From NCBI GenBank assembly GCA_032718475.1, contig JAUCBJ010003313.1, positions 1 to 64,000 of the forward strand: a stretch of 64,000 nt of DNA, read 5' to 3'. Shown here one piece after another: positions 1,189-52,088 of the stretch (its first letter is position 1; every line of letters begins with the position of its first letter). This DNA is from Nemertoderma westbladi (lineage: Eukaryota > Animalia > Xenacoelomorpha). A program made the position numbers and the translations under genes. Under the pieces are notes generated by a model. That model was not told the origin of the DNA. It saw only the letters and a program-made list of their open reading frames with translations, and did not search any database.

Positions 1189-2388
1189 TGTAAAAGCTTT
1201 TGCTGAATTGCCCGGTTATTTTTCCTTATTTTTCCCGTAAAATACTCTGTAGTTGGTTTAATAGGCGTAAGAGGCCGTATTATTGCTGTATCGGTGTTTT
1301 TAGAGGATCTAAGAGCTATTTCTTCCGTATGTGTACTGTGGAAGGCATAGTTGATGATTCTATGGCAATTCCGTGACGCAAAAGAGGCGAGATACTCTTG
1401 AACAGTAGTTACTATGACGACGGTTAACAGCTGATATTCATACGTGTCGATTTTCTTTGTTCTACGGCTTCTCTCAGTTCAGTCAACCAATCAGAGCGTT
1501 TTTACTGTTCTTGTACAGAAATTTCCTAGAAATCACGCAATGCTTTATGGGCAGTGTTATCATTCTGTCCTGAGCCAGGAAAGAACGGCTTTGGAATATT
1601 TTGTGCTTTTCTGCTTTTAGCCTAACACTAGTAGGCTTAATTATAAGGACATATATCCGTTATCTGGTTATCTCACTGCATTTATCATATCAACCAACCA
1701 AACATACATATCTTACTTAACATTACTGCTTTGCTGTCGGTTATTCATTATATTTGTTGATGAATTATTATATTTGGAATAACGATAAATAACCCCGAAA
1801 ACCCAATATTCTTGATATACCGAAGGTAAGAGAGAAAGGTTACATATAACGATTGTGACTTATGTTAAAGTGGTTTGAAGTGAATCTAATGTTATTTGAT
1901 AGACCCTACATGAGTCGGTCCGTGTTCCTTTTATATGTGACTAAAATCAGTGAAGATCGGCAGATCAGTGTGCAGTATTGTGCAGCATTGTGTATGAGTG
2001 AGACTGATAACGAAGCATTTCCTAAAGAATGCGCCATATATGTGAATTGTAACTAAGCCATATCGTTGCGTGTAGTTTAAGTCATAGCTCTGTTTATATA
2101 GATAGAGCGCCACGTCCTAAAGGAACTGTTAATATTTCCCGAAGGTGAATAATATTGTCAGAGATTATATAATACTGTCAGTCGAATAATACATTAGGCT
2201 TACATAGCAATACGATTAAGCTGTCGAAATCAATCTCCCGGGTATATCCAACGGGTGAATGATCGCGCACAGATTGGTTTCAACTAGTGTAGTGAATCAA
2301 ATACTTGTCAGAGGCTAAAAGCGATTTATTATCTAGAAGACATCCTAATTTGGCGGGTTAAACTGCCAAAGGTCTGAAAGCGCGAACA
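1189..2388 (+). mobile_element. 3' LTR (1200 bp) of LTR retrotransposon A, related to the BEL/Pao element at 23751-38069
   Basis: Starts TGTAAAAGCTTTTG after GGGAGCGG and ends AAAGCGCGAACA, the same termini as the LTRs at 23751 and 36887. The 3' portion is clearly homologous; the 5' portion is divergent. Confidence 0.9.
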
Positions 2389-7869: not shown

Positions 7870-10400
7870 TCTACTTATACGGTATATATACATCTACTTA
7901 TATTCGATATTATATTTGACGGACAGATTGTCGGATAGTCAGATAGACATATAGACGGATGGTGGGGGATTCCCCCCCCCCCCCTTAATATTCGGTTTAC
8001 AAGTAAGCTAAGATTGACTTTGTAATTAACTTGAATCCCCGCTGAATTGGGGCCAGGGTATAGTTTCCGCACAAATGCTTTAATGGGACTAACCGGGACG
8101 CATATCTGCCTTGCACACTTAATAGTATGCACGGCCGGTCAATAAAATTGACCGACTGTGTTAGTCATAATATAGGCCGACCGTTTTAGCCATCTCAGTG
8201 TAGATCGGAGTTAGCTCGGTAGGCCTATAGGCCAGTATATTTTGCTTTTTAAGATCGGTATACCTCTGTACTGTATTGCATTGTTATAGCTCAGAATGGG
8301 TCGGTATATATACGTTTTAGAACGTACTGATTTATCTTTGCTAAACTGGGTACCGTACCAGTATGTTACTGTTAGTCTGTTCTTAAAGAACTTAATTTAT
8401 ATTATTATCATTATGGTATGTTCTGTTTAAGTCAGCATGTCCACTGTCTCATTAATTTAAATTTCCCACTGATTTGCATATCAGCTATTGGCTACCTACG
8501 CTTACCGTCTTAAAAATTTCAGATACGCAAAACATAATTATTTTCACCTACGCGGAGGCTCCGCGGAGGCTCCGCATACGCGTTAAAGCAAGACCCCGTT
8601 CTGACGTTGTCAAATATTATTACGTTTATTTCCATTTCAGCCTTTGAAGCATGTAATTCTTTAGATTTGTTTAGGGTCCTACTAAATACTACAAAAAGCA
8701 CAAAAAGAACAAAAAAGTAAAAAAAAAAAAGCACAAAAAACAAACACCCCCCACATACGAAGGTAAACCCATACCTATGATTGATTAATTTGCAACGTTC
8801 TGACCTACAGTATGTAAAGGCCACAATACTGCAAAGTGTATTTGTAATTAAAATCACTATAAAAAAACATAATAAAACACATACAGTTTAGATTAATAAC
8901 TTAATAAAACTACAGTAAAATAGGATCGTGGGAAAGAACACCCAGGATCTAAGGCACTCATGGGGGTCGTAAATTAAGGTAAAATAAAATAGAATATTGA
9001 TATATAAGATAAGTACGCATGAACTCCTAAACAACATTGCAAACAATCTGGCAGTTATTATAGAAATTTCAAAGTATACAGTAGTGTTACAACAGCAGTG
9101 GTTAACCCCAGGCAGGAACTGTGTTTCCAACAGACGCAGATATCGTAACCAAGGCAGTTCCGACCTAAGCGAGATTCTTGCAAGTATGACTATGGCTAAT
9201 ATCTGAACTAATATCGCCCACTCGAGAGGTTCGGGCAGACCGTGATGTGATAATTGTACAGTATGTCGATTTATCGGTGAATAAAGGCATTCCAATAACA
9301 GAATAATCGCGATTTCGGTCAACACTGACATCCAGTTTACAAGCGCCTATGCTGCGTCGCTACATCTCCCACATCGCTACATCATTACATACTGACTGAC
9401 TGACATTGACAGATTGGTTACACTCCCTCAAAATTGAATTTGCATTGGCATGGCGCTCTTCAAAATTGTTTCAATGTGTGGCGCGCTTAAAAATTTAGTT
9501 GGCGCGGGGTTTTTTCGAAATTGCATCGGCGTGCTTAAAAATTTAGTTGGCGCAGGGTTTTTCAGGTGGTATAAATTTTAAAATGCGACAATTTTGTATG
9601 GAATGCGCTTAGCGTTCTCATTTTTTCCTATGTTCGTCTATGGGGAAAATGCAGCAAGATTGGTTCTGGCGACGCCAAATTTTGGCGTTCAAAAGGACAA
9701 AATCGGGCGTTGTGTCCCTAACTGGTAGAGTACAGGAGTATGTTAAACCCCCTCCACCCTCTAGTGCAGCAGTGCAAACTCACCCCCGCATTTATCAATT
9801 TTCACTCTGCTGTTCTGTGCAAATCCATCTCCGTCTCCCTGTCTCCGGTTAAATTTACCTAGCAGTGCCTAGTCAGCTAGTGTATCTTCCTCACTCCAGC
9901 TCCAGCAGTCCCGGCTGCGCGGTGTATATTAAGATCGGAGTTGGGATTTGTCCGGAGCCGGAGTTTTTAAAAAATTTAATTATTTAGGCCTATTAAAAAA
10001 AATAAAGTACCGGTACTGTGATAAAAATGGGACGCCCGATTATGTCGGGCAATGCTTCATAAATATAATCATAAAACATAATCATAAAACATAATCTGGC
10101 GTCCTAAACTGCTAAACGCCTATTTCTACCGACAAAATCGGGCGTTGTGTTCCTAACTGTCTACCGGAAGGGAAAATACACCCCAGGGCCAGGAGTGAGA
10201 ATGCACTAGGGAATTTTAAATTGCTGGGGAGTTATTTTGCTTGGGGAGTGAAAATTCTTTGTTACACCGGTAACGGTAACGTAAGTGGTACCGTAGTCTG
10301 TAGTCTGATCATATTTCTTATTTTACATTAAAATATTAGGCTACCTTTTGTAGGGCACCTTTCCTGACTTCAGACCTTCCTCCGTACCAGTAATGCAGTA

Positions 10401-11267
10401 ATGGAAGACATCGAAGTTTATAAAGCGAAACATCGTTATAAAGGCCTCCCAGTCACATCCAAGAACGAACATCGGACAGACGTTCTAAAGTTCGGCAAAG
10501 GAGCGCTGTTCGAAGTACTCAAACGTTCGGACACTGGCTGGTGGGTGGCTCGTTGTATCACTGACGGCGGTTCTATTGGCTACGTCCCAAGCAAATTCCT
10601 TCAAGTTACCTCGAAAAAGGTTATCAGAAAGCTGATAGACGATGGCGACTCCGCGAGCTTTGACGAAGATGACGACGATGAAAACGACGTGGCCGAAGAA
10701 GATATCCTAATTCCTGACGCGCCGCCTCTCCCTTCGCCATTTGACGTCTTATTTACTCGTAAAACGTCCTCCCCTGGAAACTCGGAAGTTACGGATCTCG
10801 TACAGAAAGGTCACATGCCGCACGAGATGGCCATTCACGATAAACTCAACAACGTGCTGCTGAAACCCACTAATTTGCCTCGACCACCATCCCCACCTGC
10901 CTCCCCAGGGCTCTCGACCAAGCCGCCACATCCCTCCTTCGTGTCCCCCATAGCCGATCCTTCGGGGGAGACCTTGTTGATGCAACTCAATCAGGAGTTG
11001 TCATTCAACCAGCGTCTTGGAATCGACGTTCTCAAAAAGGATGAGATTCACAAGGCCTGGGCCACTAAGAATTGGCAGGCGAATAAAACGCGTCAGCAGC
11101 AACACGAAGGTCACAGAAAGCGAAACAGTTTCGATAAGGCCTTGGAGAAGCAACACATAAAGCTAGAAGAGGCTGACAAACCCGTGAACCCGGAGGATGT
11201 TGGGAAAGAGAAACCTGCTTGGGCCAGCGTGCAGCTAAGGAAGACAGGAGTTAATGTGGACGATTGA
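10401..11267 (+). CDS. SH3-domain protein with proline-rich linker and FAM107/DUF1151-like C-terminal domain (288 aa)
   Basis: SH3 motifs: YKAKHRY...LKFGKG..FEVL...GWWVARC...GYVPSKFL. Acidic stretch and PxxP-rich linker follow. The C-terminus LNQELSFNQRLG...FDKALEKQHIKLEE...PAWASVQLRKTG resembles FAM107 (LHRELLxNQKxG...KLE...PEFxxVxxxLRxT). Candidate acceptor TTTTGTAG ends at 10353; AATAAA at 12044. Confidence 0.85.
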   Translation: MEDIEVYKAKHRYKGLPVTSKNEHRTDVLKFGKGALFEVLKRSDTGWWVARCITDGGSIGYVPSKFLQVTSKKVIRKLIDDGDSASFDEDDDDENDVAEEDILIPDAPPLPSPFDVLFTRKTSSPGNSEVTDLVQKGHMPHEMAIHDKLNNVLLKPTNLPRPPSPPASPGLSTKPPHPSFVSPIADPSGETLLMQLNQELSFNQRLGIDVLKKDEIHKAWATKNWQANKTRQQQHEGHRKRNSFDKALEKQHIKLEEADKPVNPEDVGKEKPAWASVQLRKTGVNVDD

Positions 11268-15226: not shown

Positions 15227-17656
15227 TATGTGGGTCAAATTGGCCCAACTCGTTGTTAAAAATCCAGCTGTGAAGTACAGGCTGGCGTGATGGTCATAAT
15301 ATCTTGTGACATCCTACCCCTACTAGTTAGTAACCATATGCTATAATATAATAACATATACCGAAATGGTGTTCTAGCAGTAGACATCTAAACACCTTGT
15401 ACACGTGGTTTACCAAAGTGGGTCAAATTGACCCAATAGTGTAAATGCTGTTCCTTATCTTATACAAGCGCTTATACATAGTAGGAAATATACCATTGGT
15501 AACTTGAAAAACGTGGGAATTTTGAATTTTCTCCAGTGAATCTTAGTGTACCGCTGTACCGGTAGTGATTGTATGTTGATATTAATCTTATAGTTGAAAG
15601 GCTGAAAGGTAACTGGATAAACATAAACACTCTCAGAGATCTCAAATTTCGGAGGTATCATTTAGTATGTCGAATCGTTATCCTAATCGGACAAGACGTC
15701 CTGTGAATGCCTATGGGTACCTTTTTCCGTCCCAAGATGAGTTCCTGGATGACAGCGATGGAGTTGATAGTGATGCAATAGATGACAATGATGAACTGGA
15801 TGGTGGTGAGAGTGAGGTGGAAGACTCTGGAAGCGATGTGTCTGCCGGAGATGGTGTGGAGGAGTGCGGGATGAGTGATGCCGGAGGAGTCGGGGAGAGC
15901 AATGGAGAAGGTGAAGGGGCAACATTATATGTATCACGTAGGGGCAACATTGAGTGGAGCAAGACGCCATGTCTTCCAACTTCTCAAGTTCGATCCATCA
16001 ATATCATTCGTGAGGGTCGGTCCATTCCCAAACATGTGAGAGATAAGAATATGTCTTCCCCACTGGACACATTTACCAATTTCATTTCACATGAAATGTT
16101 GATGATCGTTTTGGACGCAACGAACAACAGTGCGATTGACCCTGACGTTACACTCGACGAGCTGTATGGTTTCCTCGGCATCCTTATCTTTGCAGGAGTT
16201 CATCGAGACAATCGACTTCCAGTACGTTCACTCTTCCACAATGAATATGGCCGGCCCATTTACAGTGCCACTATGTCCCGAAATCGTTTCGTTGAAATTT
16301 TGCGCCACTTTCGCTTTGACAACAAAGAGACTCGTGTAGAACGGCGAGCTACTGACAAACTGGCCCCAATCCGGGAAGTGTGGGACATGTTTGTAAACCG
16401 TCTCCGATCGTCCTATGTACCAGGTCCGACTGTGACTGTGGACGAGATGCTGTCACCATTCCGTGGTAGGTGTCCGTTTCGGCAATACATCCCATCAAAG
16501 CCAGCGAAGTACGGCATCAAGTTCTGGTGGCTATGTGACTCTGAGACATTCTATCCATACAATGGCCAAGTTTATTGCGGCCGGCTTCCGAATGAAGCAC
16601 GAGAAAAGGGACAGTCTAAGCGTGTGGTCCTGGACTTGGCGCAGCCTTTATTTGGAACTAATAGAAACATTTGCGCAGACAACTTCTTTAGTAGTATGGA
16701 ACTTTTATTGGAACTGAAGCAGCATCGGCTCAGCTACCTAGGAACTGTCAGGCGTAACAAGCCGGAGGTTCCCCAAGAGTTCGTTGACACACGCGGAAGA
16801 CAAGTCCATTCCTCTTTGTTCGGCCACACCAATGACGCAACATTGGTTTCGTATATACCAAAGGCAAGCAAGTGTGTGCTGATGTTATCATCGTCCCACT
16901 TTGATCAGGAAGTATCAGCCGAGGCGACCCACAAACCCAGCATGATTTTGGATTATAATGCGCAAAAATGTGGTGTTGATGTGATGGATGCGATGGTGGG
17001 TCATTTCACAGCACGCAGGGCCACCCGCCGCTGGCCCATGCGGGTCTTCATGGTGGTAGTTGATGTTGCTGCAGTTGCCGGGTTTGTGGTGTATTACACT
17101 CTCTTCCCAACAACCCGTCGCACTAATCGGGCGAGGTTCAATTACCTAACAGAGGTATCTCAGGGTCTTATGAAGATCAGTATGACGTCTCGTACCCTAT
17201 CCCGTCATATTGCTGAGGCACCTCGTACTATAGCCCAGCGAGAGCAGCAGCTCAGTACATCCTTGGTGGGCTCCAGTTTTTCAGCACCCAAAGTTCCCAA
17301 ACGTGGGAGATGCTACAGGTGCCCACAAAAGTCTGGGTCTACAAAGTATTCACGAAAATGCGACAACTGTGCACACTTCATCTGCGACGTACATTCGCGT
17401 GTATCAACGTATTGCACTAGTTGCACCTAGAGTCCGAACATACTATTGATAACATGATATTGATAACAATCGATAACATGATATTGGTAATCGATATATA
17501 ACTCTGTACAATCACTTGTACTATATTTTAACCCTATAATTATATTGGCAGTGTGGAAATTGATTATTTCCCCTACAAAGTCGTTTTTTGTAGGTATGGG
17601 TCAAATTGACCCAAAGCGGGTGTCTATGTGGCAAAACAAAACCGGGTATAGGCGGG
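15227..17656 (+). mobile_element. piggyBac transposon; right end intact, left TIR missing
   Basis: Right end CCGGGTATAGGCGGG followed by TTAA (17657-17660). Subterminal palindromes TGGGTCAAATTG.CCCA near 15231, 15419 and 17597. No CCCGCC.. TIR at the left junction with the LINE. Confidence 0.88.
15667..17430 (+). CDS. Intact piggyBac transposase (PGBD4-like, 587 aa)
   Basis: Acidic N-terminus; DDD triad motifs VTVDEML, CADNFFSS and GVDVMD; C-terminal Cys-rich domain RCYRC...CDNC..FIC..H...C..C; no stops. Confidence 0.95.
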   Translation: MSNRYPNRTRRPVNAYGYLFPSQDEFLDDSDGVDSDAIDDNDELDGGESEVEDSGSDVSAGDGVEECGMSDAGGVGESNGEGEGATLYVSRRGNIEWSKTPCLPTSQVRSINIIREGRSIPKHVRDKNMSSPLDTFTNFISHEMLMIVLDATNNSAIDPDVTLDELYGFLGILIFAGVHRDNRLPVRSLFHNEYGRPIYSATMSRNRFVEILRHFRFDNKETRVERRATDKLAPIREVWDMFVNRLRSSYVPGPTVTVDEMLSPFRGRCPFRQYIPSKPAKYGIKFWWLCDSETFYPYNGQVYCGRLPNEAREKGQSKRVVLDLAQPLFGTNRNICADNFFSSMELLLELKQHRLSYLGTVRRNKPEVPQEFVDTRGRQVHSSLFGHTNDATLVSYIPKASKCVLMLSSSHFDQEVSAEATHKPSMILDYNAQKCGVDVMDAMVGHFTARRATRRWPMRVFMVVVDVAAVAGFVVYYTLFPTTRRTNRARFNYLTEVSQGLMKISMTSRTLSRHIAEAPRTIAQREQQLSTSLVGSSFSAPKVPKRGRCYRCPQKSGSTKYSRKCDNCAHFICDVHSRVSTYCTSCT

Positions 17657-23197: not shown

Positions 23198-23750
23198 TAC
23201 TACTACTACTAGGATCGGCATGCTGCATTGCAGCTGCATTTTTAAGAATGCTGTGCCGGCTTGTCAACAAAATTGCACCGCCACAACTCCCTATCACCCA
23301 TGACATTTGCTAGATCATCCGCATCTTTAAGGCCAGTGTCCTTTAAGATGCGTCTCAAGAAAGTCATGGGCTGTCCACCATGCTTATTCACTCCATGAGG
23401 CTGCCAAAGTACAAGATTATGCACTGGCTGGTCCTCACGGCGAAAGCAATGTCCTGCAAAGCGGAGGCGATTTTGTTCTAGTGTCAAGCTTGGGGGAACC
23501 AATGAGACACCTCCAATGTTATACAGTGTCTGGTTGGAGATGTGTGCATTGTACTTGACACAATGTACCCGGCGTAGCATTCTTGTGAATGTGCCATCCA
23601 GAGATTTGGTGTCCTCAGCAGTTAGAGCCCAGCATGGACTCCCGTAGAGGAGTACTGGAACTACTGCTGCTCTAAATAATCGGACCTTAAGTTTCCGATT
23701 AATTCTAGGTGACTTCCAAATCCTGGAAAGCCTATTCAAGGCTGCCCATG
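23198..23750 (-). mobile_element. 3' part of an RTE LINE split by the BEL/Pao insertion
   Basis: ORF 23242-23739 (LLYGSPCW, RLRFAGHCFR) continues the frame ...KGKAW from 38070-40163. (TAG)n tail at about 23198-23212. Confidence 0.93.
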
Positions 23751-24932
23751 TGTAAAAGCTTTTGTGGGATAACTGATACGTTTGCCTTTGCTGGCCAGTT
23801 CCCCCCCAGTCGCTAGAATACTCTCAAAGGGATTTATAACTAAAATAGTGCAAGCTACCAGCTTATTGGCTGATGTGCTGTACGGAGATATCTGGGCTCA
23901 GTTTAATCGGCCAACTAGCTTAGAGAGGTTGCCTTAGCCTTGCTGTTCGTGTCGGCCAATAGAATTTGCGTAGGCGTTGATTTCGACCTATCCCAGCGCT
24001 ACTGAACTGAATTTCCTATCTCTATGCTCATCCTCTGTGTTGAACGGGAGCTTCGTGGAATAAGGGAGTTGGTATCTTCGTATAGAGCAGTAGTCACATG
24101 TTTCTGTTGTTGTGTTCCCATTTTTCGCCATAACACCGGCTTTTGGAACAACTCTAGTAAAACTGCTTAGATTATAGAAAGTATAACTGTTACCGGCGGT
24201 GTTACCTCACTTAATTTAACTGCACTAATCATATTGTTTGTACTGCTATTTACCGTCAGTTATTAATTGTATCGATTTGTTGATGAAATATTGTCATTTG
24301 GAGAATATTGATAAATCACCCAAATTTCCCAATTTCTTGATACACTACAGGTTAGAGAGACAGGCTATATATAACAATTGCGATTTATATCAATGTGGTG
24401 TGTATTGAATCTAATGTTATTTAGTAGACACTACCTGAGTCAATTGCTGTTCTCTTTATGTGTGATCAAATATACTGACGGTCGGCAGAATAGTGTGCAT
24501 GATTGTGAGTGTGATGTGACTGGTAACAAAGCATTTCCTAAAGAATGCGACTTATACTTTAATCATAAGCCTTATCGTTGCGTTTAGTATAAGTCCTAGC
24601 TCTGTTTAAATAGATAGAGCGCCACGTCCTAAAGGAACTGTTAATATTTCCCGAAAGTTAATAATATCTGTCAGAGATTAATTATTAACGATCTATCGAA
24701 TAATACAGTAAGTTTACACTGCAACCTTACACTGCAATAATAAAATCTAAGCATCCGAATTCAGCCTCCCGGGTGTAGATCCATCAGGTGAATGATCGCG
24801 CATGGGCTGGCTTCGGCTAATGTTTTGTTTATTAGCATAAAATATTGTCGTATGCTAAAGGTGTGTTAATTAACTAAAAGACATATAAATTTTGGCAGGT
24901 TAAACTGCTAAAGGTCTTCAAAAGCGCGAACA
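23751..24932 (+). repeat. 5' LTR of element B (1182 bp)
   Basis: Nearly identical to 36887-38069 (I see one 1-nt indel and one substitution). AATAAA at 24739. Confidence 0.95.
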
Positions 24933-24944
24933 GTAACAGTTATA
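24933..24944 (+). promoter_or_regulatory. Putative non-tRNA primer-binding site, complementary to LTR position 24182-24193
   Basis: GTAACAGTTATA directly follows the LTR-terminal CA, and its exact reverse complement TATAACTGTTAC lies inside the LTR. No TGG-initiated tRNA PBS. Confidence 0.6.
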
Positions 24945-25225
24945 ATCTTATTGCAGTAGGCAATAAGGTTGCAAAATACCGTAGTGACTGGTAAAACTGA
25001 ACCGGTGCTTCTGTAGGTCAGTAGGCCTAACTGTCATCACCGGTACCGGTACTGCTGTACAAGTACATTTAGTATTATTCGATTTTGATTATTGTATACC
25101 GGTAGGCTGTTTAAGAGATTAGGGACTGTACACCCCTTGTTTCTTTTGGAGCTTACTTATTTCTGTCGGTTTTATTTCCTAGTAAGTTAATATTGAGCTG
25201 AAGACGTGTAAGTCTGCTCAGATTG

Positions 25226-25770
25226 TTCAAATAATTGTAGGCTGAACTGCTGTCTGACTGTGTTGAGTTTGGAGAGATTACGGCGTGTGTAGAGTTTGTC
25301 TGATCAAGTGCCGTTAGTAAGTTGGGGCAGCCATATGCGGTAAGGTCAATCCCCTCTTAAAGAATAAGTCGTACTACCGTGTTAGAACGCATACTAACTA
25401 ACAGTTTCAGAGTCTGCATATACTGTAGTTTATTTAGGCTTGATCGTAGTCTGCCAGTGTTTTAGCCTGTGTTTGTTTGTGTGGTCTGTTCAGGTACCGT
25501 AATAGTTATTACTCAAATATTTGTAGGCTGGATTGTTGTCTAGCTATTTTTAGGTCTGAAGGGATTGCTGCGTGTGTAGAGTTGGTCTGATAAAGTGCCG
25601 TTAGTAAGTTGGGGCAGCCATAAGCTGTAAGGTCAATCCCCTCTTAAAGAGTAAGTCGTACTACCGTGCTAGAACGCATACTAACTAACAGTTTCAGAAT
25701 CTGCACATACTGTAGTTTGTTTAGGCTTGATAGTAGTTTGCCAGCGTTTAGTTTGTATTTTGTTTGAGTA
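25226..25770 (+). repeat. About 287-bp diverged tandem duplication in the 5' leader of element B
   Basis: AAGTGCCGTTAGTAAGTTGGGGCAGCCAT...AAGGTCAATCCCCTCTTAAAGA...AGAACGCATACTAACTAACAGTTTCAGA occurs twice. Confidence 0.88.
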
Positions 25771-27112
25771 TTCTGTACGGGTAGCGAAATATTTATTATT
25801 CAGAGTTTATGCGATTATTCGCAACATTCATGTCCCCAAGTTTATTCCTACAGTAATTGTGCTTGTTATACATACCGTTATAGTTAAACTAACCCCGGTA
25901 CTACATCAGGGCTGCTCGGCGTAGGTAAAGACTGGTGACTTTGTGCTTTGGTCACTCCAGCAGATGCCGTGGTTCTTTTAACTGTTCAAGTATATTTAAC
26001 TACTGATTATTTGTTATACCGGTACTTGTACCTAATTTAGGGTTTAGTGTACAGTGCTTTCCGAAGTAATTAGTGTAGGCAGTATATTTGTGTTGTAAAG
26101 TGGTTGATAGGCACATTCGTTAGCTCTATTAGCTTCTGGGTAGGAACAATCCGTGATACATAACGTAGTACCTATAACGATACGGTTATAGGTCGTCAGG
26201 CGGTGGTATTTTCCTATCTGGACAGTACAGTATATTTACTACTACTTATTATTTTCAAATACCGTAGTACCCTGTCCATTGTAATAACCAGAATTCTAAC
26301 CCTTTGTTAGGCTGGTTTGTAGACTTCCTGTAAAATTACCCTAAAAATTCGTACGTAATATTTTTGTTGTGTTTAACTAGAGATTTAATCTCACCCGTAT
26401 CGTAAGTAATTTGTAGTATTAAGTAACTTAGGTAAATTAGAATTATCTGTTTTAGTGTCCCATAGGTAGCACTTCACTGAGAGCGCACAGCTTCTGTGTA
26501 GTGACTCCCCCAGAAATAATAACATCTATTTCAATATTGTAACAAAACCCCTCATACGGGTACATATAAATCCACTAAATCTATTAATAAAATAGTAGGC
26601 CTATTATACAACACTTAGGTCTTAATATCAGTTGGACTGCTGCTCAAATAACGGTAATAAAGTAAGTAAAGTAACCAAGTGACCCCTAACATTCAGAAAT
26701 TCAATTATTTTTAAAATAATTGACATACCGGTATTTACAATAGGCTTATTATATTTATTTCCATAAATTTAAGCTGAAATCATACCGGTATTCTGTAATT
26801 AATTTTAGTTCATAATTATACTTTATATATATTATAAGTGTAAGCTGTATACTGGTATCCACGATAGGCCTATTATATATTTATATATATATTTGTGCTA
26901 AATTTATATACCAGTACTCTGTGACAAATCTAGTCTGTAATAATACTTATATATACTATAAGCATACCGGTATTCTAATATATTATATATATATATCACG
27001 CTACATTGAGTAGCAGTATCGGTAATTAATTATTAGGCTAGCAGTGATACTGAATTACTAGACTTGCTTTAACTGTATATGTAGCAGTAGGCATCCAACT
27101 GTATAAAGCGAA

Positions 27113-30100
27113 ATGTCTGACACAACACAAACATTGTCAGATAGTCTCTTAGAGGGTTTTAGAATGAGTCGTCGACTTGGACAGTGTCTTGAAAGGAGAG
27201 AAGACAGAAAAGAAGCGGAAAGAAAAGTAGCAGCGACAGAAGCAGAAAGAAAAGCGGCAGAGGCAGTGGCAGAAGCAGAACGGAAGACGTCTGAAGCGAC
27301 TATCCAACTAGAGCTGGAAAACCTTCAGGCGAAACCAACCAGAAGACTACCTGTGCCCAGTAGGACTGTTCCCGAGTCCGAACCCGTCCTGGACGCCGAG
27401 CGAGGTATCAAGAATTTATCGCCCGTCGTCTCTCGCTCGCCCGCTACTACGTTGGCGACTCCCGCTTCGGCGGTTGAGTGGGTAGCTGAGGGACGACGGG
27501 AGATGGGTCTCCTGCTCGAGCAGCTGAGGTAACACTGTTTGTGCTCCTCTCAGCAGGTCAGGGAAATGGAAGAGACTGTTCAGCAGCTCAAGGGAACAGT
27601 AAGGGAAAGTAGGTTAGAGTTGCAAAAAGTGCAGCAAAGTATCGTACTAGAATGCGACAAATTAGTCAACCAACAAAAGGGAATACCAATAACCCCTGTA
27701 ACAGTGTGTCAGCCTGTTAGGTCTGAAGTATTACATGCGCAAGGTGTGGAGCCTACACGCATCTATACTGCTAGTGAAGTAGAAACTCCTATAGCAAACC
27801 CTATTAAGGGTGATTATACGCCTGTTGTTAATGACATTCCCAATAGACCTGATAATAATCCGAGAAATTTATATACCGATAACTCGATATTCAATAACAC
27901 GATGGCCCAAGAAAGTTTTACGCGTCAAATGGCTAGAACCGAAGCCCGTCAAGCGGTAAAGGTTGGAGAGATAGTCAAGTTCAATGGAGATGAGATGAAA
28001 TGGTTACCTTTTAATGAATATTATAAAGATAACATACAGAACTCTGTGTTATCCAACGGAGAGAAACTTAGATTCCTCATCGAGTGCTTGGAAGGACCTC
28101 CCAAGTCAATGGCGTTAAAATTTATTGGACATCCAGATGGATTAAGACAAGTTTGGGATATACTAAACATCAGGTATGGTAATAGGAATAACATAGCTAG
28201 GTATTTATATGCGAAATTAATGGCCCCCCGAAAGTTTCTTAGCAGCGGGATTATAGAGTTTTCCGATGAGATTCAGGAGATCTGTAGACAACTAGATTGG
28301 TTAGGTAAGTCTCATGAATACCAGAATTCTATGGTTGTAGGAGCCTTAGCATCTACTTTGCCCAAGGGTGGAGTAGGTACACGCTGGGACAAGAAGGTGT
28401 TATATACGATGGAACAACAACAACGAGACCCTACCATGGCTGATCTCATGTCATTCTTGGATGGCGAAGTGAAATTACAACTCCTAAAGCATTCCAGAGA
28501 GAAAACACCGGAAAATAAGGTAAGTGAGAAACCCGTTTCTAGGAGAAGAGTAACACCGGTGTGTTATACTGATGACGGCGAAAGCCAAGCTTCTCAAGAA
28601 GAAGACAGCGAGAAAGACACCGAGAAATTTTACTATGTTAACAAGACCTCAAAGAACGTAAGTAAATCTAAAGCTCGAACCCATGACAGGAGAGAACAGG
28701 TTGCTAAGACTCCTCTTCAGTTTCCTAACAGAGTACACGGAAGAAAGCCCGAAGAAAGAACTAGAGTGCATAACGTCACCCAAGGTAAAGTGAGTAACAT
28801 TAAACCAAAATGTGCGCTGTGCGATGGGCCCCACCGTTTGAGTGTGTGTGCTGAATTCCTAAAGAAATCCCTGGTAGACAGACATGAAGTCATGTGGGAT
28901 AAGCGGTTATGCTATAATTGCCTCAGACCAGGACACCAACGGCGAACCTGTTACTCCGAAGTAAAGTGTGCAAAGTGCGGTGCGAAACATCACATCTTGT
29001 TACGCAGTGAATTCGAACGAAACAACCCGAGTCAGGTAAGTGAGCCCGAACTACATGTCCAATTCAGTGATGTAAATGACACTGATCAAGAATCTGAGTG
29101 GGAAGGATTCTATACGGACGAATTCTCCGATGCCAACGAATCCTGTTATCTAATAAATACCACAGTGTATCGAGCACTTACGGATGAAAAGGACACTGAC
29201 GAGTTTACTCCAACTCCTTTTGACAAACAACCATCTTGGAAAGTTCCAACTTCCAACATAGGAATAAGAGAATTTCCTGTAGTGCAAGTTCGAGTTCATG
29301 GTCCCAACAAGAGTTACATAGTGAACGCCCTACTTGACTCCGGCAGCACAGGAACATTCATCGATCAAGAACTAGCCGAAGATATCTTTGCTGGACAACC
29401 CAAGTTCCGGACTAAATTGAATATGTCAGGAATCATACAGGTTTGGAAATCTACCATAACGGCAGATTACTATGTAGGTGCGTTGTCCACCCCCCAGGAT
29501 AAATTAGGAGCACAAAGTATAAGGTCAGTAAAAATGGTGGCTATAAAGAACTTCGCTACTACCCAAGCAGACCTTTATAATTGGGACGAGGATGAGAGCA
29601 TCCAACATCTTAAGATACCTCGATTCCAGACAGATTATCCTGGAGTGCAAATACTCATCGGCCAAAACGCGCATGAGGCGCTAGAGACATTGGAGAAACG
29701 GCCTGCTCAACCACAGCCACTACAAACCTATGCGGTAAGAACTAGAGTAGGTTGGTACTTCACTGGCCCTTCCCGTAGAACTCTCAAAGAGAGATTACCT
29801 CAACAACAGGTATACCAAGTAAAGGAATGGGAAGTGGAGAGCAGTGATGTGGACGATCCAACTGAGGGAACACCATACTCCTCAGATAATGACGATATTA
29901 ACTCCAATGTAGATCAATGGAGACATTGCCTTGGGACGATTAATCCAGCCGACATCGCTTCCAGAGGAGCAACTCCTCAAGAACTGATAGATACTCCAGG
30001 CTGGTTAGGTGGATCCGACTCCTTAAGTAAAGAAGAAGAAGAATGGCCTCCTCATCTTACCACGGCAGAAATTAGACAGGCCAAGGGAGCGGAGAAAGTA

Positions 30101-30220
30101 ACACAACAACTCAATCGCCCAGCTAGTCGTTTATGTTTACTGGAAAGAGACCGAAAACTGTCCGAAAACTATGGAAGGCAAGATACCCAAGGAGGTGAGG
30201 TCTCTATAGGGGTGTCTTGA
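27113..30220 (+). CDS. gag: BEL/Pao gag-aspartic protease polyprotein fused to an RNase H C-terminal remnant; one in-frame TAA at 27530
   Basis: ORFs 27113-27532 and 27539-30220 share a frame. Motifs: DUF1759-like KFNGDEMKW..F...EKLRFLIECLEG; three Cys/His knuckles CALCDGPHRLSVC, CYNCLRPGHQRRTC, CAKCGAKHH; protease ALLDSGSTGTFI; then WRHCLGTINPADIASRG...W..G..L...EEWP (end of Pao RNase H). Confidence 0.9.
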
Positions 30221-32356
30221 ACAGGCGGCGGCGGACTCGTGAGGGTCTGGGGGCACGTTAAATCCCTTCTATAGTGCAGGGGAGTTACTGAAGGCCCTCG
30301 TGTCTTGCGAACCATGAATTAACATGGTGCCGTGGTACCGTCTAGTCGGCATGTTGCCGTACTGCCAGTCCTGTACACAGTAGGGGTGGTGGCTTAGTGT
30401 GATCTGTGGTTTATGTGGTCTATGTGGTAGGTCTATGTTTGGTATGTATGAGTTGACCAGACTCTGTACTGTCTCCGATCGGTTGCCAAAACGTGTTTTT
30501 TCCCAGGGTAGCACTATTGGAATGGAGGTGTTGCATCGGAATGGACAGGTTCTGATGATTCTGTTGGTACTACTATTGGAATGGAGGTGGCACCCGGAAT
30601 ATCGGCTGCAAGGAGGGGTTAGTGTTGTAGTGTGGTCCGAGTGAATGATACTCTGGAATCTGTGGTATGTGTGTAGACGATCAGTGGCAGTTTGCTTGAG
30701 CTTTCTGTTGCTGTGGGTACGTGGTATACGTGAGTGTATGTATGGCCACTGCGAGTGAGTATGGGAACCCTTGCCGGTTGGTCTAGACGCCGCTGGTATT
30801 AGTAGGACCATATCTTTACTGCGCCCCAGCATACTTTGTGCACACAAAGTTATTTTGCCCTGACGGCAAAATAAAGTACTCTCGACTTTTATTAGTCGAT
30901 ACAATTTTGTCCCCTCTGATTTTGTCACCGATTTTGTCTTCCCCGATTATGTCCTCTGTGTGTGCGTGGTATGCGTCAGATTTTGTGTTTACCTTTTGTG
31001 TACTTGATTATCGAACATCTGTTGAGTACACGTGTACAGTGACTGGTAAGTGGTTACTTGTTCCTAGCTTTCGAGCTAGTCAGTATTGTTTGCGGAACCG
31101 ACTTCCCCTCAATACTGCCGGCGAGGCGGGTGAAAACGGTCAATATTCCATGTGGGTAGTGCAAGCCCGCTTGGGACAAGACCGTCGGTTTGGCTCAAGG
31201 GCGACCTTGATGCTCGATCGCTATCGACTGGTCCACCCGCCGGTTGACTCTCTGAGTTGGCTCAATGTACAGTCAGGCCACAGCAAGTTGACAGTAGCCG
31301 ACCATCTGGCTACACCGACGAGTTGTGCCGGTGTGATCGGGGGATTGAAAAGTGAACCCGGGAAGCATCGGGCTACCCTCTGGCCCAGTCTGATCGGAGT
31401 CGGACTGGCCCCAAGGGTGGTGGGACAGCGTCCGCCTCATGGGTGCGCCTCGGAGTCATCAGAGAGGAGCCCAGAAGGACGCAAGCGACTCTTCCTACGA
31501 CTACTTCCCTAATCCGGCAAATATCTAGGGACTCCATAACGTGATAGCATGTGGAGTGGGCGTGTGACTATATCATTTTATATTTGTTTTTATTTTATAT
31601 TTATGTATGTATTATTATGTAATTTTATTATAATCGTTTTCTTTAATTTTATTTAGTAGCATGTTATTTTAGAATATTTAGTAAATTAGTGCAATATATT
31701 AGTGTTTATTACGTACATAATTACTTATAATATATATTTAGTGCGACGGCAAGAAGTAATTATTTTCTCTTTCCTTACTGTCCGTATTATATTATAAATG
31801 CGAGACTATAGTAAGATGACATGTCAGTACTTCTTAAAGTACAATAAAGCCACTACTATATTTAAGTATTATTGGTAGGCAGAGTATTAGGAATGCAAAG
31901 TTCAGATCCTCGTGTCTCGGCTAAACCAAGCTCTGGGTAGACCTTGGAAACGACTTGCCTCTTCACACTGACATTGCTTCGTGCGATATTGCTCTTCTAC
32001 CTTATAACAAATAATACATATAGTAGCGTGATGTCCCTCTAACAGTAGCGTAAATCGCAAATAAATCTGTTAAACTTTTGACCATCTGTAATTCTAGTCG
32101 ATTAACCCTTTAGGTACTATGGATCACCCATGTGATACATAAGCAATGGTCTTCTAGAGCGCTATGTATCATACAGGTGATCCATGCTTTTAAATGTTAC
32201 CCTATGCTATTCTATTCAGCTTTAGTGCATTTCTAAGCACTCTGCTATTTTATTAGTGCATCAAGGGACATCTTTTTAGATACCGGTACCAGTTTACTGC
32301 ACCTGACTAGCAGATATGTGACTCTTACCATACCGGTACGGTAGGTACGTAAGCTT

Positions 32357-33359
32357 CACAAAGGTCGCTTGAGTTTCAAGCAGTATATCAAAACCAAGCG
32401 CGCTCGGTTTGGAATTAAGTCATTCATTTTATGCGATGCAAATGGCTTCTTAATTCGTGCTCTATGTTACTACGGGAGTGAGTCCGCTTTACCACAGGTA
32501 GAAGCTGATCCAAAACTTTCAAAGAGCGAGAACGTTGTAGCGTTACTACTGTACTATTAGAGGAATCGGATATGTTCGGGAAGGGGTATACAGTTAATGT
32601 TGATAACTGGTACTGTAGTGTACGATTAGCCCGCTTTCTCCTTACCAAGGAAACTGGTTCGAGAGGAACTATTCGAGTAGTACAGTAGTACTGAAAGAGT
32701 TTAAACAAACTCAGATCTCTTCAAAGTTTAGTTATTGTGGCAATAAGTTATTGGCCATGAAATTTACAGACAAGAGAGATGTGTACATGGTTTCGACGGT
32801 TGATGATTCGTCTATGGTAACAAAGACCAGGTATGCAAAGAAGACTGGAGATCCAACAGAATTCGAGAAACCAACTGTAATAAATAACTATAACAAGTTT
32901 ATGGGAGGTGTCGATATACAATACTCAATTATAAAGTCATTCAATCCAGTTCGAAAATCGCATGCGTGGTTTAAGAAAGTTGGAATAAACATGATTGCTA
33001 GGTTGGTGGTAAACTCATTCTTGATCTATAAAAGGACGAATAATGGAAACCCAAAAGGAAATCTACAGTTACTTCTCTGTCTGAAGAAAGTTATAACAAT
33101 TCTGACAAATATGAAGTCAGATGGTCCGAAGCTTAGTCGGAAACGGTTGAAGCTTATCGATTCAGCATCAACATCATCAAAGCCCGTGCACGCCGTCACG
33201 TTCATCCCCCCAACGGATAAAGCCGCGAAACCACGTCGTCGATGCCGAGTTTGCTACGCGAATGGCAGGCGTATTCGGCTGACCCGCTTCCATTGCCCAA
33301 TGTGCCCTTCAAAGCCAAGCTTATGCCATGGGTGTATCGCCAAGTGGGACCACAAATGA
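32357..33359 (+). pseudogene. piggyBac transposase C-terminal remnant
   Basis: GRLSFKQYIKTKRARFGIK, VDNWY, YNKFMGGVD and terminal RRRCRVC...CPMC...LC..C...H. Frameshifted; N-terminal half deleted. Confidence 0.9.
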
Positions 33360-33484
33360 ACAATAATAAGATAATTATAATTTCTATATAATTTCAATAA
33401 GAATAAATGGAAATTGTAAGTGCATCTACCATTATGTTTTTTGTAGTTTTTTTGGTTGGTTGGCATACCTTCTCAATTTTTGGC

Positions 33485-34225
33485 AGACAAACTGACAGAA
33501 AGGCGGACAAATATATATTGTAGATTTCGTCAAACGTAAAAACTGACATCAGAAATGAAATCACCGTCCAAGAAAACCCCCATAGCCAAAATTTCCGGTT
33601 GATCGTATGCGTTCTTAGTTTTTGACAGACAAACTGACAGACAGACAGACGGACAAACAGACAGTGTAGATTTCGTTAAACGTAAAAATTGACATCAGAA
33701 ATGAAATCACCGTCCAAGAAAACCCCATAGCCAAAATTTCCGGTTGATCGTATGCTTTCTTAATTTTTAACAGACAAACTGACAGAAAGACGGACAAACA
33801 GACAGTGTAGATTTCGTTAAACATAAAAACTGACATCAGAAATGAAACCACCGTCCTAGAAAACCCCCATAGCCAAAATTTCCGGTTGATCGTATGGTTT
33901 CTTAATTTTTGACAGACAAACTGACAGAAAGACGGACAAACAGACAAACAGACAGTGTAGATTTCGTTAAACATAAAAACTGACATCAGAAATGATACCA
34001 CCGTCCAAGAAAACCCCATAGCCAAAATTTCCGGTTGATCGTATGCTTTCTTAATTTTTGACAGACAAAATGACAGAAAGACGGACAAACAGACAAACAG
34101 ACAGTGTAGATTTCGATAAACGGAAAAACTGACATCAGAAATGGAATCGCCGATCTTTAAAACCCCAAAGCGAAAATTTCAGGATGACGATATGCTTACT
34201 TAGTTTTTAACAGACAAACAGACAA
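33485..34225 (+). repeat. About 145-bp tandem repeat (about 5 copies) in the piggyBac right arm
   Basis: AGCCAAAATTTCCGGTTGATCGTATG and TGACATCAGAAATG recur every 142-149 bp. Confidence 0.9.
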
Positions 34226-35358
34226 AGGCAGCTCTAATTTGTAAAAATTTTCAGCGCATTACTATATGTTATTTGGGAATATTCAGTACCTAAAGGGTTA
34301 AGATATCGTGGCACCCACCGATATACTTGAAAGACAAATTCTAGAATCAGTGGTTAACGTCCCCAGACAAGTTCTGGAATAAATCGGTGCTCATCCTAAA
34401 TATTAATTTAATATTTATTAAAATCTGTAAAATCCCGATCCTTTAAAACTTCTAGTCAAATAAGATATCGCAGTATTTACCGATATTCTTAGAAGGACTA
34501 TTCATAGAATTAAGGATCCTATGTCCCCAGACCTGCTCTGGAATCAAATTGTGTCAATTTAACATCAAATAATAAAATTCACGGGAATAAATTTAAATTC
34601 ATATTCGAATGAATTTCATAAATTGTCATTTTGTGCAATTTATAACATTCCCAAAATTCCAGTAATTAATAGATCATGGGAGCGGAGATTCATATTGAGT
34701 GTACTAGAGTGCGAGAATCTCCAACATATAGTCAATAGCCGATAAAATTTATAAAATCATGCATAAAGGGGATATTGACAATTAAAAAATTACTATTAAA
34801 TAACATCCCAGATCTGTATGCATGAGGATTGCCCTAATTCTACCGCTAGTTTTCCATAATGTCACCATGGCAACACCCACGCTAGAATTAGAAGCAAGTT
34901 AAAGGAACAATAAAAAGCTTGCCCCATTGCGTAGCATAAGAGTATACATAGCGCGCTATTAGTATCCAAGGATACATAGTAATAACGTGACATTCTGGAA
35001 GACACTGACTAACGGACAAATGGCATGCGTGTGTGCAGTAAGTAATGATTGTATGGAATTTGTGCGTTTATAGGTGAATGTTACTACTAAAGTGTGTTTA
35101 CAGTAGCTAATCGCAATTGTAAAGTAGCCCTAACTCTACCGAGATAACCTCAAGTGGATTCAAGCCTTTGGGACGGGCAGTGGTGGGACTTGTGCCGGTT
35201 ATCGTTGTCGTGCTGTTGCTACATGTTGGCGTAAACACTGCGACAACGGTACATCGGCGCTGAGAAACCCACTGTCCGGGGGCAAAGCCTAGTAGGCAGC
35301 GACGCCCGCTTGCCTAAATATTAACTCATATTGATATTAATAAACTCAGATAGCAGAT

Positions 35359-36808
35359 ATGACGGAATTGATAGAAGATGACCTTGGTATTAGAGAGCGA
35401 TATACTCTACCTTACAAGCGTTTGTGGATAGCTTGATACGCGGTGAAGCCGATCCGACTATTACGGAGGACGATGGTCGTTATATCGAACCGCCGATGTC
35501 CCAAGAGCAACTTACGCGTGAATTGGACTATCGAAAATTAACCGCTCGCTATACGCATCATAATGGTACGTATATGGACTTCTTAACTACCGGCCATCCT
35601 ATCGATTTACATGATACGGACGATGTAGACACCGAAAGGGAAATGGTTCTATTTAAATATCATACCCAGCGGCGTCGTAACGATAAACCGAGAATAGATC
35701 ACGAAAATTCTATTCGTAACAGACTGGGAAGACGAACCAATATGTCTAGAATCTGAGGAGATTCAGCCTATCGCGCTCGGAACAGCGACAACGATTACAT
35801 CCTAGAATGGTATCAAGGTCCACAGTGTCTCACTGCGTACGATTATCGCCATGCCAACTATGTTTCTCGGCAACGTTGTCGGTTATGCGCATCGAGAGAC
35901 CATGTTACGCCCATGGACACCAACGATCCTCTGTTCCTATTTCCACGAGCAACCGTCGATGGAAATCTATTGTGCATATTGTCGGCTTTAATAATTTGCA
36001 CATTTTTGCTGTCTGCCCCCAATTTATGACTCAATGTCACCATTGTCAACTAAAGGGACATGCCAGTTTCGATTGCCCTTTTAATCACGATTTGGAAAGC
36101 GTAGATGAAATGATCACACTACGTTACATCAGAGCTTGGGAAGCGAACACTGATTTATATTGTGATTCGCGCCATCGCTATTATCCCGGACGCGCTTACG
36201 AAGGAGTTTATGCGTTACATCCTTATCTATTCGCTTCGGTTGAACAGAAATCACGCATATCAAGTTACGAGCTACTGAAGCGCGTCGGAGAATGTATTTC
36301 AACCAAATTCGTACGCAAATTTCTCAGGAGTGTTAATCCTAGCGACCTTCATTCCTATAACTTAATCAATCATATCCGTCAGGATCCGGACTATGGAGAA
36401 TTGTTTGTTAACTCACACCCTGAGTTACAGGAAGTATATCGACGGCCTTACGAATACCGAGCCCGCGAACGCGAGTTGGAAAGAACCATTAAACCAAGGA
36501 AGTTTCTAACTGCCTATGGTCCACCCACGGCCCTCGTTCAGACCACTCGTAAAGGACCCGTAAGAGCGGCTGTCTTGAAACGAGCTCTCAAAGCCGTTAG
36601 ACCCCTCTCCCCGGACGTTGATGTCAATCAACCCGGTACTTCGACCGGCGGATATACCGATCGCAATCCCATACCTTCTGATGCAATCATATTGCACCCT
36701 TCACCCAGGAGTTATAGCCCTCCTCGTAAAGTGGCTCGCCCCAAAGAGAAAAGGACTCTTGCTAGCTTTAAAAAACTGCGTAAACGCCGTCCGCGCAAGA
36801 AAGACTAA
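35359..36808 (+). pseudogene. Accessory ORF in the env position of element B: multi-CCHC zinc-knuckle protein with basic C-terminus, disrupted
   Basis: ORFs 35424-35756 and 35807-36808. Reading through the TGA at 35754 gives RCRLCASRDH; then, across frameshifts, CAYC..NNLHIFAVC and the intact CHHCQLKGHASFDC; ends KKLRKRRPRKKD. A homologue lies at 1-1110. Confidence 0.65.
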
Positions 36809-36886
36809 CTGTTTAGAGTATTTTTATATTTTAGAAACTGTGATTTTGTATATTTTATAGACTTAAATCCCATTTTCTGGGAGCGG

Positions 36887-38069
36887 TGTAAAAGCTTTTG
36901 TGGGATAACTGATACGTTTGCCTTTGCTGGCCAGTTCCCCCCCAGTCGCTAGAATACTCTCAAAGGGATTTATAACTAAAATAGTGCAAGCTACCAGCTT
37001 ATTGGCTGATGTGCTGTACGGAGATATCTGGGCTCAGTTTAATCGGCCAACTAGCTTAGAGAGGTTGCCTTAGCCTTGCTGTTCGTGTCGGCCAATAGAA
37101 TTTGCGTAGGCGTTGATTTCGACCTATCCCAGCGCTACTGAACTGAATTTCCTATCTCTATGCTCATCCTCTGTGTTGAACGGGAGCTTCGTGGAATAAG
37201 GGTAGTTGGTATCTTCGTATAGAGCAGTAGTCACATGTTTCTGTTGTTGTGTTCCCATTTTTCGCCATAACACCGGCTTTTGGAACAACTCTAGTAAAAC
37301 TGCTTAGATTATAGAAAGTATAACTGTTACCGGCGGTGTTACCTCACTTAATTTAACTGCACTAATCATATTGTTTGTACTGCTATTTACCGTCAGTTAT
37401 TAATTGTATCGATTTGTTGATGAAATATTGTCATTTGGAGAATATTGATAAATCACCCAAATTTCCCAATTTCTTGATACACTACAGGTTAGAGAGACAG
37501 GCTATATATAACAATTGCGATTTATATCAATGTGGTGTGTATTGAATCTAATGTTATTTAGTAGACACTACCTGAGTCAATTGCTGTTCTCTTTATGTGT
37601 GATCAAATATACTGACGGTCGGCAGAATAGTGTGCATGATTGTGAGTGTGATGTGACTGGTAACAAAGCATTTCCTAAAGAATGCGACTTATACTTTAAT
37701 CATAAGCCTTATCGTTGCGTTTAGTATAAGTCCTAGCTCTGTTTAAATAGATAGAGCGCCACGTCCTAAAGGAACTGTTAATATTTCCCGAAAGTTAATA
37801 ATATCTGTCAGAGATTAATTATTAACGATCTATCGAATAATACAGTAAGTTTACACTGCAACCTTACACTGCAATAATAAAATCTAAGCATCCGAATTCA
37901 GCCTCCCGGGTGTAGATCCATCGGGTGAATGATCGCGCATGGGCTGGCTTCGGCTAATGTTTTGTTTATTAGCATAAAATATTGTCGTATGCTAAAGGTG
38001 TGTTAATTAACTAAAAGACATATAAATTTTGGCAGGTTAAACTGCTAAAGGTCTTCAAAAGCGCGAACA
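36887..38069 (+). repeat. 3' LTR of element B (1183 bp)
   Basis: TGTAAAAGC...GCGCGAACA, preceded by GGGAGCGG and followed by TSD CCATG. Confidence 0.95.
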
Positions 38070-40180
38070 CCATGCCTTTCCCTTACGTATTCGAAGGTCC
38101 TCACCTGACTTCCGGATCCATGATCCCAGGTAACAGAAGTCGTCCACATGCTCAAGCATACCATCCTTTGAGCTTATGCTCATCCGATCAGAGACTTGCT
38201 GAGGACTTTCAAAGTTAACTGTCAGAATTTTGGTCTTTCTGGAGTTAATAAAAAGACCAACACTAGAAGCAGCATGTTCTAATGAGCTGAGGAGCCGCTG
38301 GGCTCCCTCTAATGATTCTGAGAGTACTCCTAAGTCATCAGCAAAGTCTAGATCAGTTAGGTACTTGGCAGCATTTCCTCGACTTCTGGAGCCAGTAGGT
38401 GGAGTTATCATCACCCCATCATCATTATGATGATCTAAGGACATGCGTAGAACATAGTCAACCACAATAATGAACAAGAATGGTGCAAGTGTGTCTCCTT
38501 GGAGGACGCCCCATAACACTTCAAATGGTTCTGTGTCACCGTCAACAGTAGACACAAATGTTGTCGAACCGTCGTATACTGATCTGATTGCTGCAATAAT
38601 TTCATCAGGAATCCCATATAATGAAAGTATGCTGAACATACGTGAGCGAGAGACTGAATCAAAGGCCTTGAAGAAGTCAACAAAGATAACAGCCAGATGC
38701 CTGTCTTTCTTTTTTGATAACTCTTCAATTATCCTTCTAAGTGCCAAAATTGGCTCCATGGTCCCACGACCTTTACGGAACCCATTCTGATTTCCACGTA
38801 GCAGTCTCTCAATGGGATCCCTGATGCGATTTAATAGAATTCTATTGTATAGTTTTGCAGCAATCGAGATCAATGAGATTCCCCGAAAAGAACCATAGAG
38901 TGTTAGGTTGCCCTTCTTGGGAACTGGCACCAACTTATTTGTTTTCATTTCTTGTGGGACTCTTGTTGTACGGTACATGTCTACTATGATGGGATAGATG
39001 AGCTTTAAACACTCAGGTATTTTAAAGACCTCAGGGGGAACACCATCTACTCCACTGGCACGATTGGTCTTAATGCTCTTTGCAGCAGCCTTCACTTCTG
39101 CAAAGGAGATATCGCCAATGGGAATATCTGGGAGTACAGACTCAGACACTTTTACTTCTATAAAGTTATCAGGCAATACCCTGTCATTATTGAGGAGCTT
39201 TTCAAAGTGGGCTTTCCAACCATTAAGGCGATCGGCTGGTGATTCAGCCTTAACCTTGGTGGTTGGTTGGCTTTTCTGCCCAGTAAGCAGATTGATCGAT
39301 TTCCATGCCTGGGATGATTGCCTGCTGTCGTCAGCATCATTGATGGCATCAACCTGTTGGTTTATTAGCTCCTGTAGATTAACAGAGTACTGCCTGTTCA
39401 GGGACCTAGATGCAGCTTTAACTGCATTCTTGGCCGCTGTAGTCTGTTTGAGTCGGGACTCTTTCTGCGCCTTATGAAGGTCATTTCGGCACTTCTGAAT
39501 TTTGTTGTCAGTCCAGGGGGCCCTTTTCCTGTTTCGAGGGTATACAGGAACTGTTTCTGCAGCTGCTAACTTAACTGCTTCTGTAAAGGCAGTATAGCCC
39601 TCACAGTGATCTGCCGCCTCAGAGGCAAGAGCCTCATACCTGTTGCTCAGCTGTAGTGTGAAGCTGGATCTCACACTTGGCTGTTGCAACAGAGAGGACC
39701 AGTCATGCCGTGGCAAGGCAGATTTCGTTGTTCTGCTAGCACGCAGACTAAGTCTTACCTTGGCCACAATAAGGCGGTGATCACTGGAGAAGGGTCGAAG
39801 TGTAAATGCATTACAGTCTTGTATAGAGCTCCTGTATTTCCTACGAAACAGAATATGGTCTATCTGGGACTTGTGACCACTGGGTCCACTATGAGTCCAT
39901 AGCTTTCCAGTTCGCTTCTTGAACTGGGTTCCAGCCGAAAACAATCCATTTCCAGAGATAAAATCCTGAAGATGGACAGAATTTCGGTTAACACTATTGC
40001 TATAGACCCAGGGCGATGTAGGTGATTGATGCAGACTTGCATTAAAGTCTCCCAGGAATGTTAAGAATGCATGCTGATCCACTCCATCAGTAGCTGCTTG
40101 TAGATTGTGGTAGAAATTTTCCACCTCCTCTACAGGGGCAACACTAGTTGGAGAGTAGCACACAATCAGAACTACCTTAG
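38070..40180 (-). mobile_element. 5' part of the split RTE LINE: partial APE endonuclease plus RT, open frame
   Basis: GDFNA, QIDHIL and SDHRL (APE); FVDFFKAFDS, GVLQGDTLAP and DFADD (RT). 5'-truncated within the endonuclease. Confidence 0.95.

Positions 40181-48148: not shown

Positions 48149-52088
<3,940 letters not shown>

Follow-up and report, generated by a model that had tools for sequence, protein, structure and literature searches.

How does a BEL/Pao retrotransposon prime minus-strand DNA if the sequence that follows its 5′ LTR offers no site for the 3′ end of a tRNA? The question is raised by element B, which lies in the 64,000-nucleotide stretch of Nemertoderma westbladi DNA that we analyzed (the window; Table 1). 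B is a young, non-autonomous, defective BEL/Pao retrotransposon. Its LTR pair, the single long direct repeat found when the window is compared with itself (99.8% identity over 1184 columns), differs at 2 places, and since the differences are so few, the cis signals of the element were probably functional until recently. B has the TG...CA LTRs, target-site duplication and purine tract of a BEL/Pao element. It has no primer-binding site (PBS) that would pair with the 3′ end of a tRNA, the first TGG past the 5′ LTR being at 24989, 57 nt downstream of the LTR.

The BEL/Pao identity proposed in an earlier sequence-only reading of this DNA holds. The main frame of B contains DUF1759 (E 1e-13), and all eight of its longer homologues carry Pao peptidase (PF05380) together with DUF1759 (PF03564) domains. 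Gag and protease are fused directly onto an RNase H C-terminal motif (29900–30112), and with 12 homologous proteins as queries, neither reverse transcriptase (RT), integrase nor most of RNase H was detected in B. Judged by the type of its Gag and protease, B is thus a member of BEL/Pao (Belpaoviridae), with the RNase H C-terminal motif as the sole pol remnant downstream. Membership in Tf1/sushi, which have Ty3/gypsy chromovirus proteins, was considered and is ruled out, as the proteins of B are BEL/Pao-type. The extra 3′ frames contain two zinc-knuckle-like motifs and a basic C terminus, and their counterparts in the related element A (3–133 and 946–1107) are 65–76% identical; these frames have no Pfam match, and Atlas gave weak leads to zf-CCHC proteins.

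Table 1. Positions in the window of features of element B and of the related element A; pairings and functional roles are predicted
Feature	Position	Strand	Remarks
Left target-site duplication	23746..23750		5 bp, CCATG
B, 5′ LTR	23751..24932	+	1182 bp, TG...CA; 2 differences from 3′ LTR
LTR part unalignable with the LTR of A	23751..24170	+	likely U3
Candidate self-primer in LTR	24182..24193	+	exact complement of the PBS position
Outer LTR arm	24695..24706	+	complements leader 25072–25083; 11/12 kept in A, the change allowing G-U
Two 10-nt LTR arms	24720..24740	+	24720–24729 and 24731–24740; complementary to leader just past PBS
AATAAA	24739..24744	+	only one in LTR, likely poly(A) signal; ~550 nt downstream of candidate primer
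LTR-end stem, 5′ arm	24793..24801	+	stem with last 9 nt of LTR (8/9 pair); 9/9 identical in A
LTR-end stem, 3′ arm	24924..24932	+	ends at terminal CA; 9/9 identical in A
Primer-binding position	24933..24944	+	GTAACAGTTATA, without TGG; complements 24182–24193
Leader arms	24948..24973	+	24948–24957 and 24964–24973, pairing with LTR; 24948–24957 kept exactly in junction contig of run X5
Outer leader arm	25072..25083	+	
Broken gag-pol	27107..30220	+	in-frame stop 27530–27532, near start
piggyBac-type insertion in B	32102..34301	+	TTAA ends, transposase remnant
Extra 3′ reading frames	35394..36808	+	zinc-knuckle-like motifs; partly common to A
Short purine-rich tract	36879..36886	+	precedes 3′ LTR; identical in A
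B, 3′ LTR	36887..38069	+	TG...CA
Right target-site duplication	38070..38074		CCATG
A, 3′ LTR	1189..2388	+	74% identical to B over last 665 nt
A, equivalent of candidate self-primer	1652..1663	+	9/12 identical to that of B

Several other features of the window are recorded here. The long 5′ leader of B includes ~288 bp that are tandemly doubled (25227–25802), and a 149-bp unit is repeated 4.8 times (33470–34225) within the piggyBac-type insertion. Outside B, an uninterrupted 605-codon piggyBac-type transposase frame (15613–17430) is accompanied by a TTAA-type end at 17528, and a frame at 10368–11267 that lacks introns and encodes SH3 and DUF1151 domains, either a host gene or a processed copy, resembles mollusc and echinoderm clusters, which faintly suggests a marine invertebrate. 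On the minus strand, a Ulp1-type protease frame lies directly upstream of an RT frame (48774–52115), an order also seen in non-LTR elements that carry a protease. From 53240 to 64000, where it runs off the end of the window, there is a 39-bp satellite; its copies, at least 276 in number, are 93% similar.

What, then, occupies the primer-binding position of B? As the sequence-only reading had claimed, the 12 nt that follow the 5′ LTR, GTAACAGTTATA, lack TGG, begin immediately behind the terminal CA, and match a segment within the LTR exactly in reverse complement. In this pairing the 3′ C of the LTR segment stands opposite the first base past CA. An exact complement to this 12-mer occurred in 7 of 20,000 dinucleotide-shuffled LTRs, and a complement of at least 12 nt beginning at offsets 0–3 in 24 of 20,000. 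Among 11,914 start positions inside the element, just 3 are complementary over 12 nt to the LTR, the PBS position being one of them. A published screen for self-primers asks for at least 10 bp beginning 0–5 bp after the LTR (PMC6317226); with 12 nt at offset 0, B passes it. The proposed self-priming signature holds at the level of sequence. We found no tRNA gene in the 64-kb window and no tRNA-like Rfam match in B, where the sole match was to a weak miRNA model, below the gathering score.

A primer assembled by splicing was considered and rejected: among 52 GT-AG joins in the LTR, the best uses a weak donor and lengthens the 12-nt pairing to 15 nt, a gain that we ascribe to chance, and the unspliced LTR already has the 12-mer in one piece. 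Separately, an 11-nt stretch in the region of the gag in-frame stop (27525–27535) is complementary to the LTR just past the candidate primer (24199–24209), which is within chance levels.

If the LTR segment is a self-primer, it should lie near the start of the transcript. Where does R begin? Element A is represented in the window by its 3′ end and 3′ LTR, its 5′ junction being outside. Over the first ~430 nt the LTRs of A and B are 0.51 identical, compared with 0.47–0.50 in 5 shuffles; identity climbs from about 24230 and is 0.65–0.97 in 11 of the 12 sixty-base bins from 24231. In fission yeast elements, a divergent U3 segment ends near the U3/R junction (bioRxiv 10.1101/2022.12.06.519325). 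By analogy, R may begin near the candidate primer site, where the alignment of the A and B LTRs starts. Part of the LTR is present in 6 of 9 sequencing runs listed, and in all four runs whose contigs were aligned, the alignment of family contigs to A ends at 1662–1666 and gives way to unlike sequence, the end of the conserved block falling within 3 nt of the predicted 3′ end of the primer (among the 19 of 27 loose ends listed). This ending could also reflect a core promoter with transcription starting just after the site. A weak TATA-like word is conserved just upstream (24173 in B, 1642 in A) and, were it a TATA box, the start would lie downstream of the site.

Such a start would place the segment in U3, so that the RNA carried only the 3′ LTR copy and the PBS paired with the 3′ end of the genome, either for priming by a 3′ fragment or for 5′–3′ circularization. 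We consider this unlikely. There are weak TATA-like words both directly upstream of and inside the site, and the conserved block (~1607–1666) ends where a start 25–30 nt past the TATA-like word would fall, but these words do not match TATAWAW. The sole AATAAA is ~550 nt downstream, so the 3′ end of the RNA is not predicted at the site, and a cut there would presumably detach the 3′ R needed in strand transfer.

Two further properties of the LTR can be mentioned. The stretch most conserved between A and B (24601–24655 in B, 2090–2143 in A; bin identity 0.97) lies ~90 nt upstream of AATAAA and has the highest contig depth in the LTR. The 50–65 nt right past the candidate primer (24197–24240 in B, 1667–1730 in A) are highly variable among family contigs and lie between two conserved blocks.

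Could the transcript fold so that primer and PBS meet? The segment from 24155 to 24975 folds better than 20 of 20 shuffles (z −6.0), and the models predict three nested helices between LTR and leader: 24948–24957 with 24731–24740, 24964–24973 with 24720–24729, and 25072–25083 with 24695–24706. In the nested local fold the PBS is predicted to be largely unpaired (0.58–0.98). The two arms that would flank the primer/PBS duplex jointly arose in 1 of 20,000 shuffles and singly in 219 and 65, the figure being a generous one since the arms were chosen after inspection. The Tf1 "pretzel" (bioRxiv 10.1101/2022.12.06.519325) consists of the self-primer/PBS duplex and two duplexes that join PBS-adjacent sequence to LTR sequence downstream of the primer, and a similar three-duplex layout can be drawn in B. 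The central pair is beyond the scoring of the folding program because it crosses the leader helices. Opening both 12-mers would cost 5.1 kcal/mol against a duplex of −13.8 kcal/mol, before any pseudoknot penalty; a nested fold in which the pair is forced is 8–10 kcal/mol worse than the free fold, and primer and PBS are ~740 nt apart. A stem at the LTR end is predicted to be weak in B (pair probability 0.15–0.22) versus strong in A (0.96–0.99 for 5 pairs), and among the 40 of 152 substitutions listed, the sole variant in the counterpart of its 5′ arm hits an unpaired position. The AATAAA overlaps an arm of the inner helix by 2 nt in B; speculatively, this overlap may help to keep AATAAA from acting in the 5′ LTR.

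The folds also bear on how far the pairing with the PBS region extends. The sequence-only reading had continued it across a bulge to about 24162, and the complementarity is indeed present in the sequence (across a 9-nt bulge, duplex −20.6 versus −13.8 kcal/mol), but its GCAGT part has a better partner in the 10 bp at 24731–24740. That helix has a pair probability of 0.94–0.95 in three of four folds with different start points and of 0 in the fold that starts at 24162, and in the A/B LTR alignment the upstream ACTGC is not kept in A. Because GCAGT pairs better elsewhere and A does not have the upstream partner, a transcription start at 24162 is without support.

If PBS and LTR segment function together, they should change together. 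The LTR site of A differs from that of B at the partners of PBS positions 1, 6, and 8, and it had been predicted that A would carry roughly ATAACGGATATA after its own 5′ LTR. Among the 24 of 285 loose ends listed, one low-depth contig from run X5, which comes from another organism (organism B) and may be RNA, starts in an A-like LTR end and passes over into sequence that is homologous to the junction of element B. We take it to be a 5′ junction rather than flanking DNA, because the 10-nt leader arm of element B (24948–24957) is retained exactly, 3 nt further out. By eye, its first 12 nt differ from the PBS of B at positions 1, 5, 6, and 8; at positions 6 and 8 the letters are those that pair with the LTR site of A, and at position 1 there is a third letter. 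The prediction was therefore borne out at 2 of 3 diagnostic letters and at 10 of 12 overall, in a contig that is not A's own junction. The contig pairs at 10 of 12 positions with the site of A versus 8 of 12 with that of B, its mismatches to A falling at position 5 and at the priming end (position 1). Chance is put roughly at 0.005, a figure that sets one low-depth contig against the LTR of a different element and leaves shared ancestry out of account. Across the LTR site itself, the X5 contig there has 4 differences from A within 1607–1666. At the LTR end, run X4 has a loose end in which 3 contigs are mixed (agreement 0.63). Neither viral nor metagenome contigs matched the conserved LTR motif (0 in each), and protein queries for family loci gave none that was confirmed (0 of 2, 0 of 51, and 0 of 53).

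These data also bear on the possibility that B takes its primer from the host, as an internal tRNA fragment or another RNA, and that the LTR complement only covers the PBS, in a pairing with a structural or regulatory function. Priming by half-tRNAs requires no TGG and is known in copia lineages (PMC6317226), and the extensive LTR–leader structure is present regardless of the primer. Against this, two family members have junction 12-mers that disagree at 4 positions, and there are just 4 G or C residues in the 18 nt past the LTR. A fixed host primer is expected to reset the PBS in every cycle. Since the PBS appears to vary within the family along with the LTR, a fixed host tRNA would fit poorly, and we regard a host primer as improbable. 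Least likely of all is that the complement is an accident without function in priming, arisen by chance or when a template switch in this defective copy produced a short inverted duplication: B is heavily rearranged internally and has 12-nt LTR complements at two further internal positions, but the placement exactly at the first base past CA, the presence in a contig from another organism of a homologous junction whose changes match, and the conservation of the flanking arms all count against an accident.

We conclude that the family of B probably primes minus-strand DNA in the manner of Tf1, with a short fragment of its own RNA that comes from the 5′ part. Self-priming is favored because the exact 12-nt complement is at offset 0, TGG is absent, and two flanking duplexes can be drawn; because the X5 junction has A-matching letters at positions 6 and 8 and keeps the leader arm; and because the site sits at the onset of the A/B LTR alignment, with contig alignments ending within 3 nt. 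Arguing against it, covariation comes from one low-depth contig compared with the LTR of a different element and includes a mismatch at the priming end; the LTR-end stem of B is weak, the primer is distant from the PBS, and the forced nested fold is unfavorable; and the conserved TATA-like word would, as a TATA box, place the start past the site.

How might self-priming proceed? Transcription would start at or shortly before 24182, and the helices between LTR and leader would keep the PBS exposed within a loop. There the transcript's 5′ segment would dock as a pseudoknot, its 3′ C facing the first base after CA, and a cut after 24193, made in Tf1 by RNase H, would free a 3′-OH. In Tf1, RNase H cleaves between bases 11 and 12 (PMC7175516). 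RT and integrase would be supplied in trans by an intact family member, since B lacks RT and its LTRs are near-identical.

The evolutionary reading is less secure, although we put its chances at slightly better than even: a BEL/Pao lineage in a marine invertebrate dropped tRNA priming and converged on self-priming of the Tf1 type, three-duplex fold included, with a leader helix that masks the poly(A) signal of the 5′ LTR only. If this is correct, self-priming occurs in all three superfamilies of LTR retrotransposons, and Tf1/sushi and one lineage of plant copia are not alone in having abandoned tRNA priming. LTR finders that demand a tRNA PBS would overlook such families. Self-primed elements would also evade silencing by 3′ tRNA fragments.

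For Cer7 of Caenorhabditis elegans, a BEL-like element, a self-encoded primer RNA has reportedly been proposed, one that is tRNA-like and lies inside the element; in B the candidate primer is instead an LTR segment, and the search for tRNA-like genes gave none. The ICTV describes Belpaoviridae as host-tRNA-primed, with a PBS whose 18 nt pair with the 3′ end of tRNA-Arg or tRNA-Gly (PMC8742986), and a self-primed branch would call for a revision. B resembles that description in LTR length (0.2–1.2 kb), type of Gag and protease, and short purine tract, but has no such tRNA site. Achilles has a tRNA-Tyr PBS (PMC4580426). The literature that we searched, which leaves outside it most subscription papers, Repbase, and GyDB, yielded no report of self-priming in BEL/Pao; its absence from print is not established. 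A term search found no discussion of the PBS in four BEL/Pao surveys (PMC554778, PMC3118150, PMC2774666, PMC6238403), mentions in PMC8220671 are generic only, and PMC3286476 leaves its BEL/Pao elements unanalyzed.

The sequence-only reading named Tf1/Tf2 and sushi as the known self-primers, which is incomplete, since the Tcn1 clade and the Ty1/copia TAR lineage are also predicted to self-prime (PMC6317226). Self-priming has been shown for Tf1 and is predicted for Tj1, Tf1/sushi, Tcn1, and, among plant copia elements, the TAR lineage (PMC6317226, PMC7175516, bioRxiv 10.1101/2022.12.06.519325); PMC3601003, PMC6934838, and PMC5443660 mention it as well. Tf1, Tf2, Tj1, and Tosmo, together with Tf1/sushi elements including Tcn1 (Ty3/gypsy chromoviruses), share with B an LTR-complementary PBS and the lack of a tRNA site. 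The Tf1 group also shares the arrangement of a central duplex with two PBS-adjacent duplexes, which in B is predicted. The Tf1 group belongs to another superfamily, whereas B has a DUF1759 Gag and longer homologues with Pao peptidase domains. The complement is 11 nt in Tf1 and 12 nt in B, whose candidate primer lies far from the PBS in a 1182-bp LTR, and whose start and cleavage points would be those proposed above. Like B, the plant Ty1/copia TAR lineage (Houba, Osr-1) is predicted to self-prime from the same type of signature and lies outside Ty3/gypsy (PMC6317226); that lineage is plant copia, whereas B is animal BEL/Pao.
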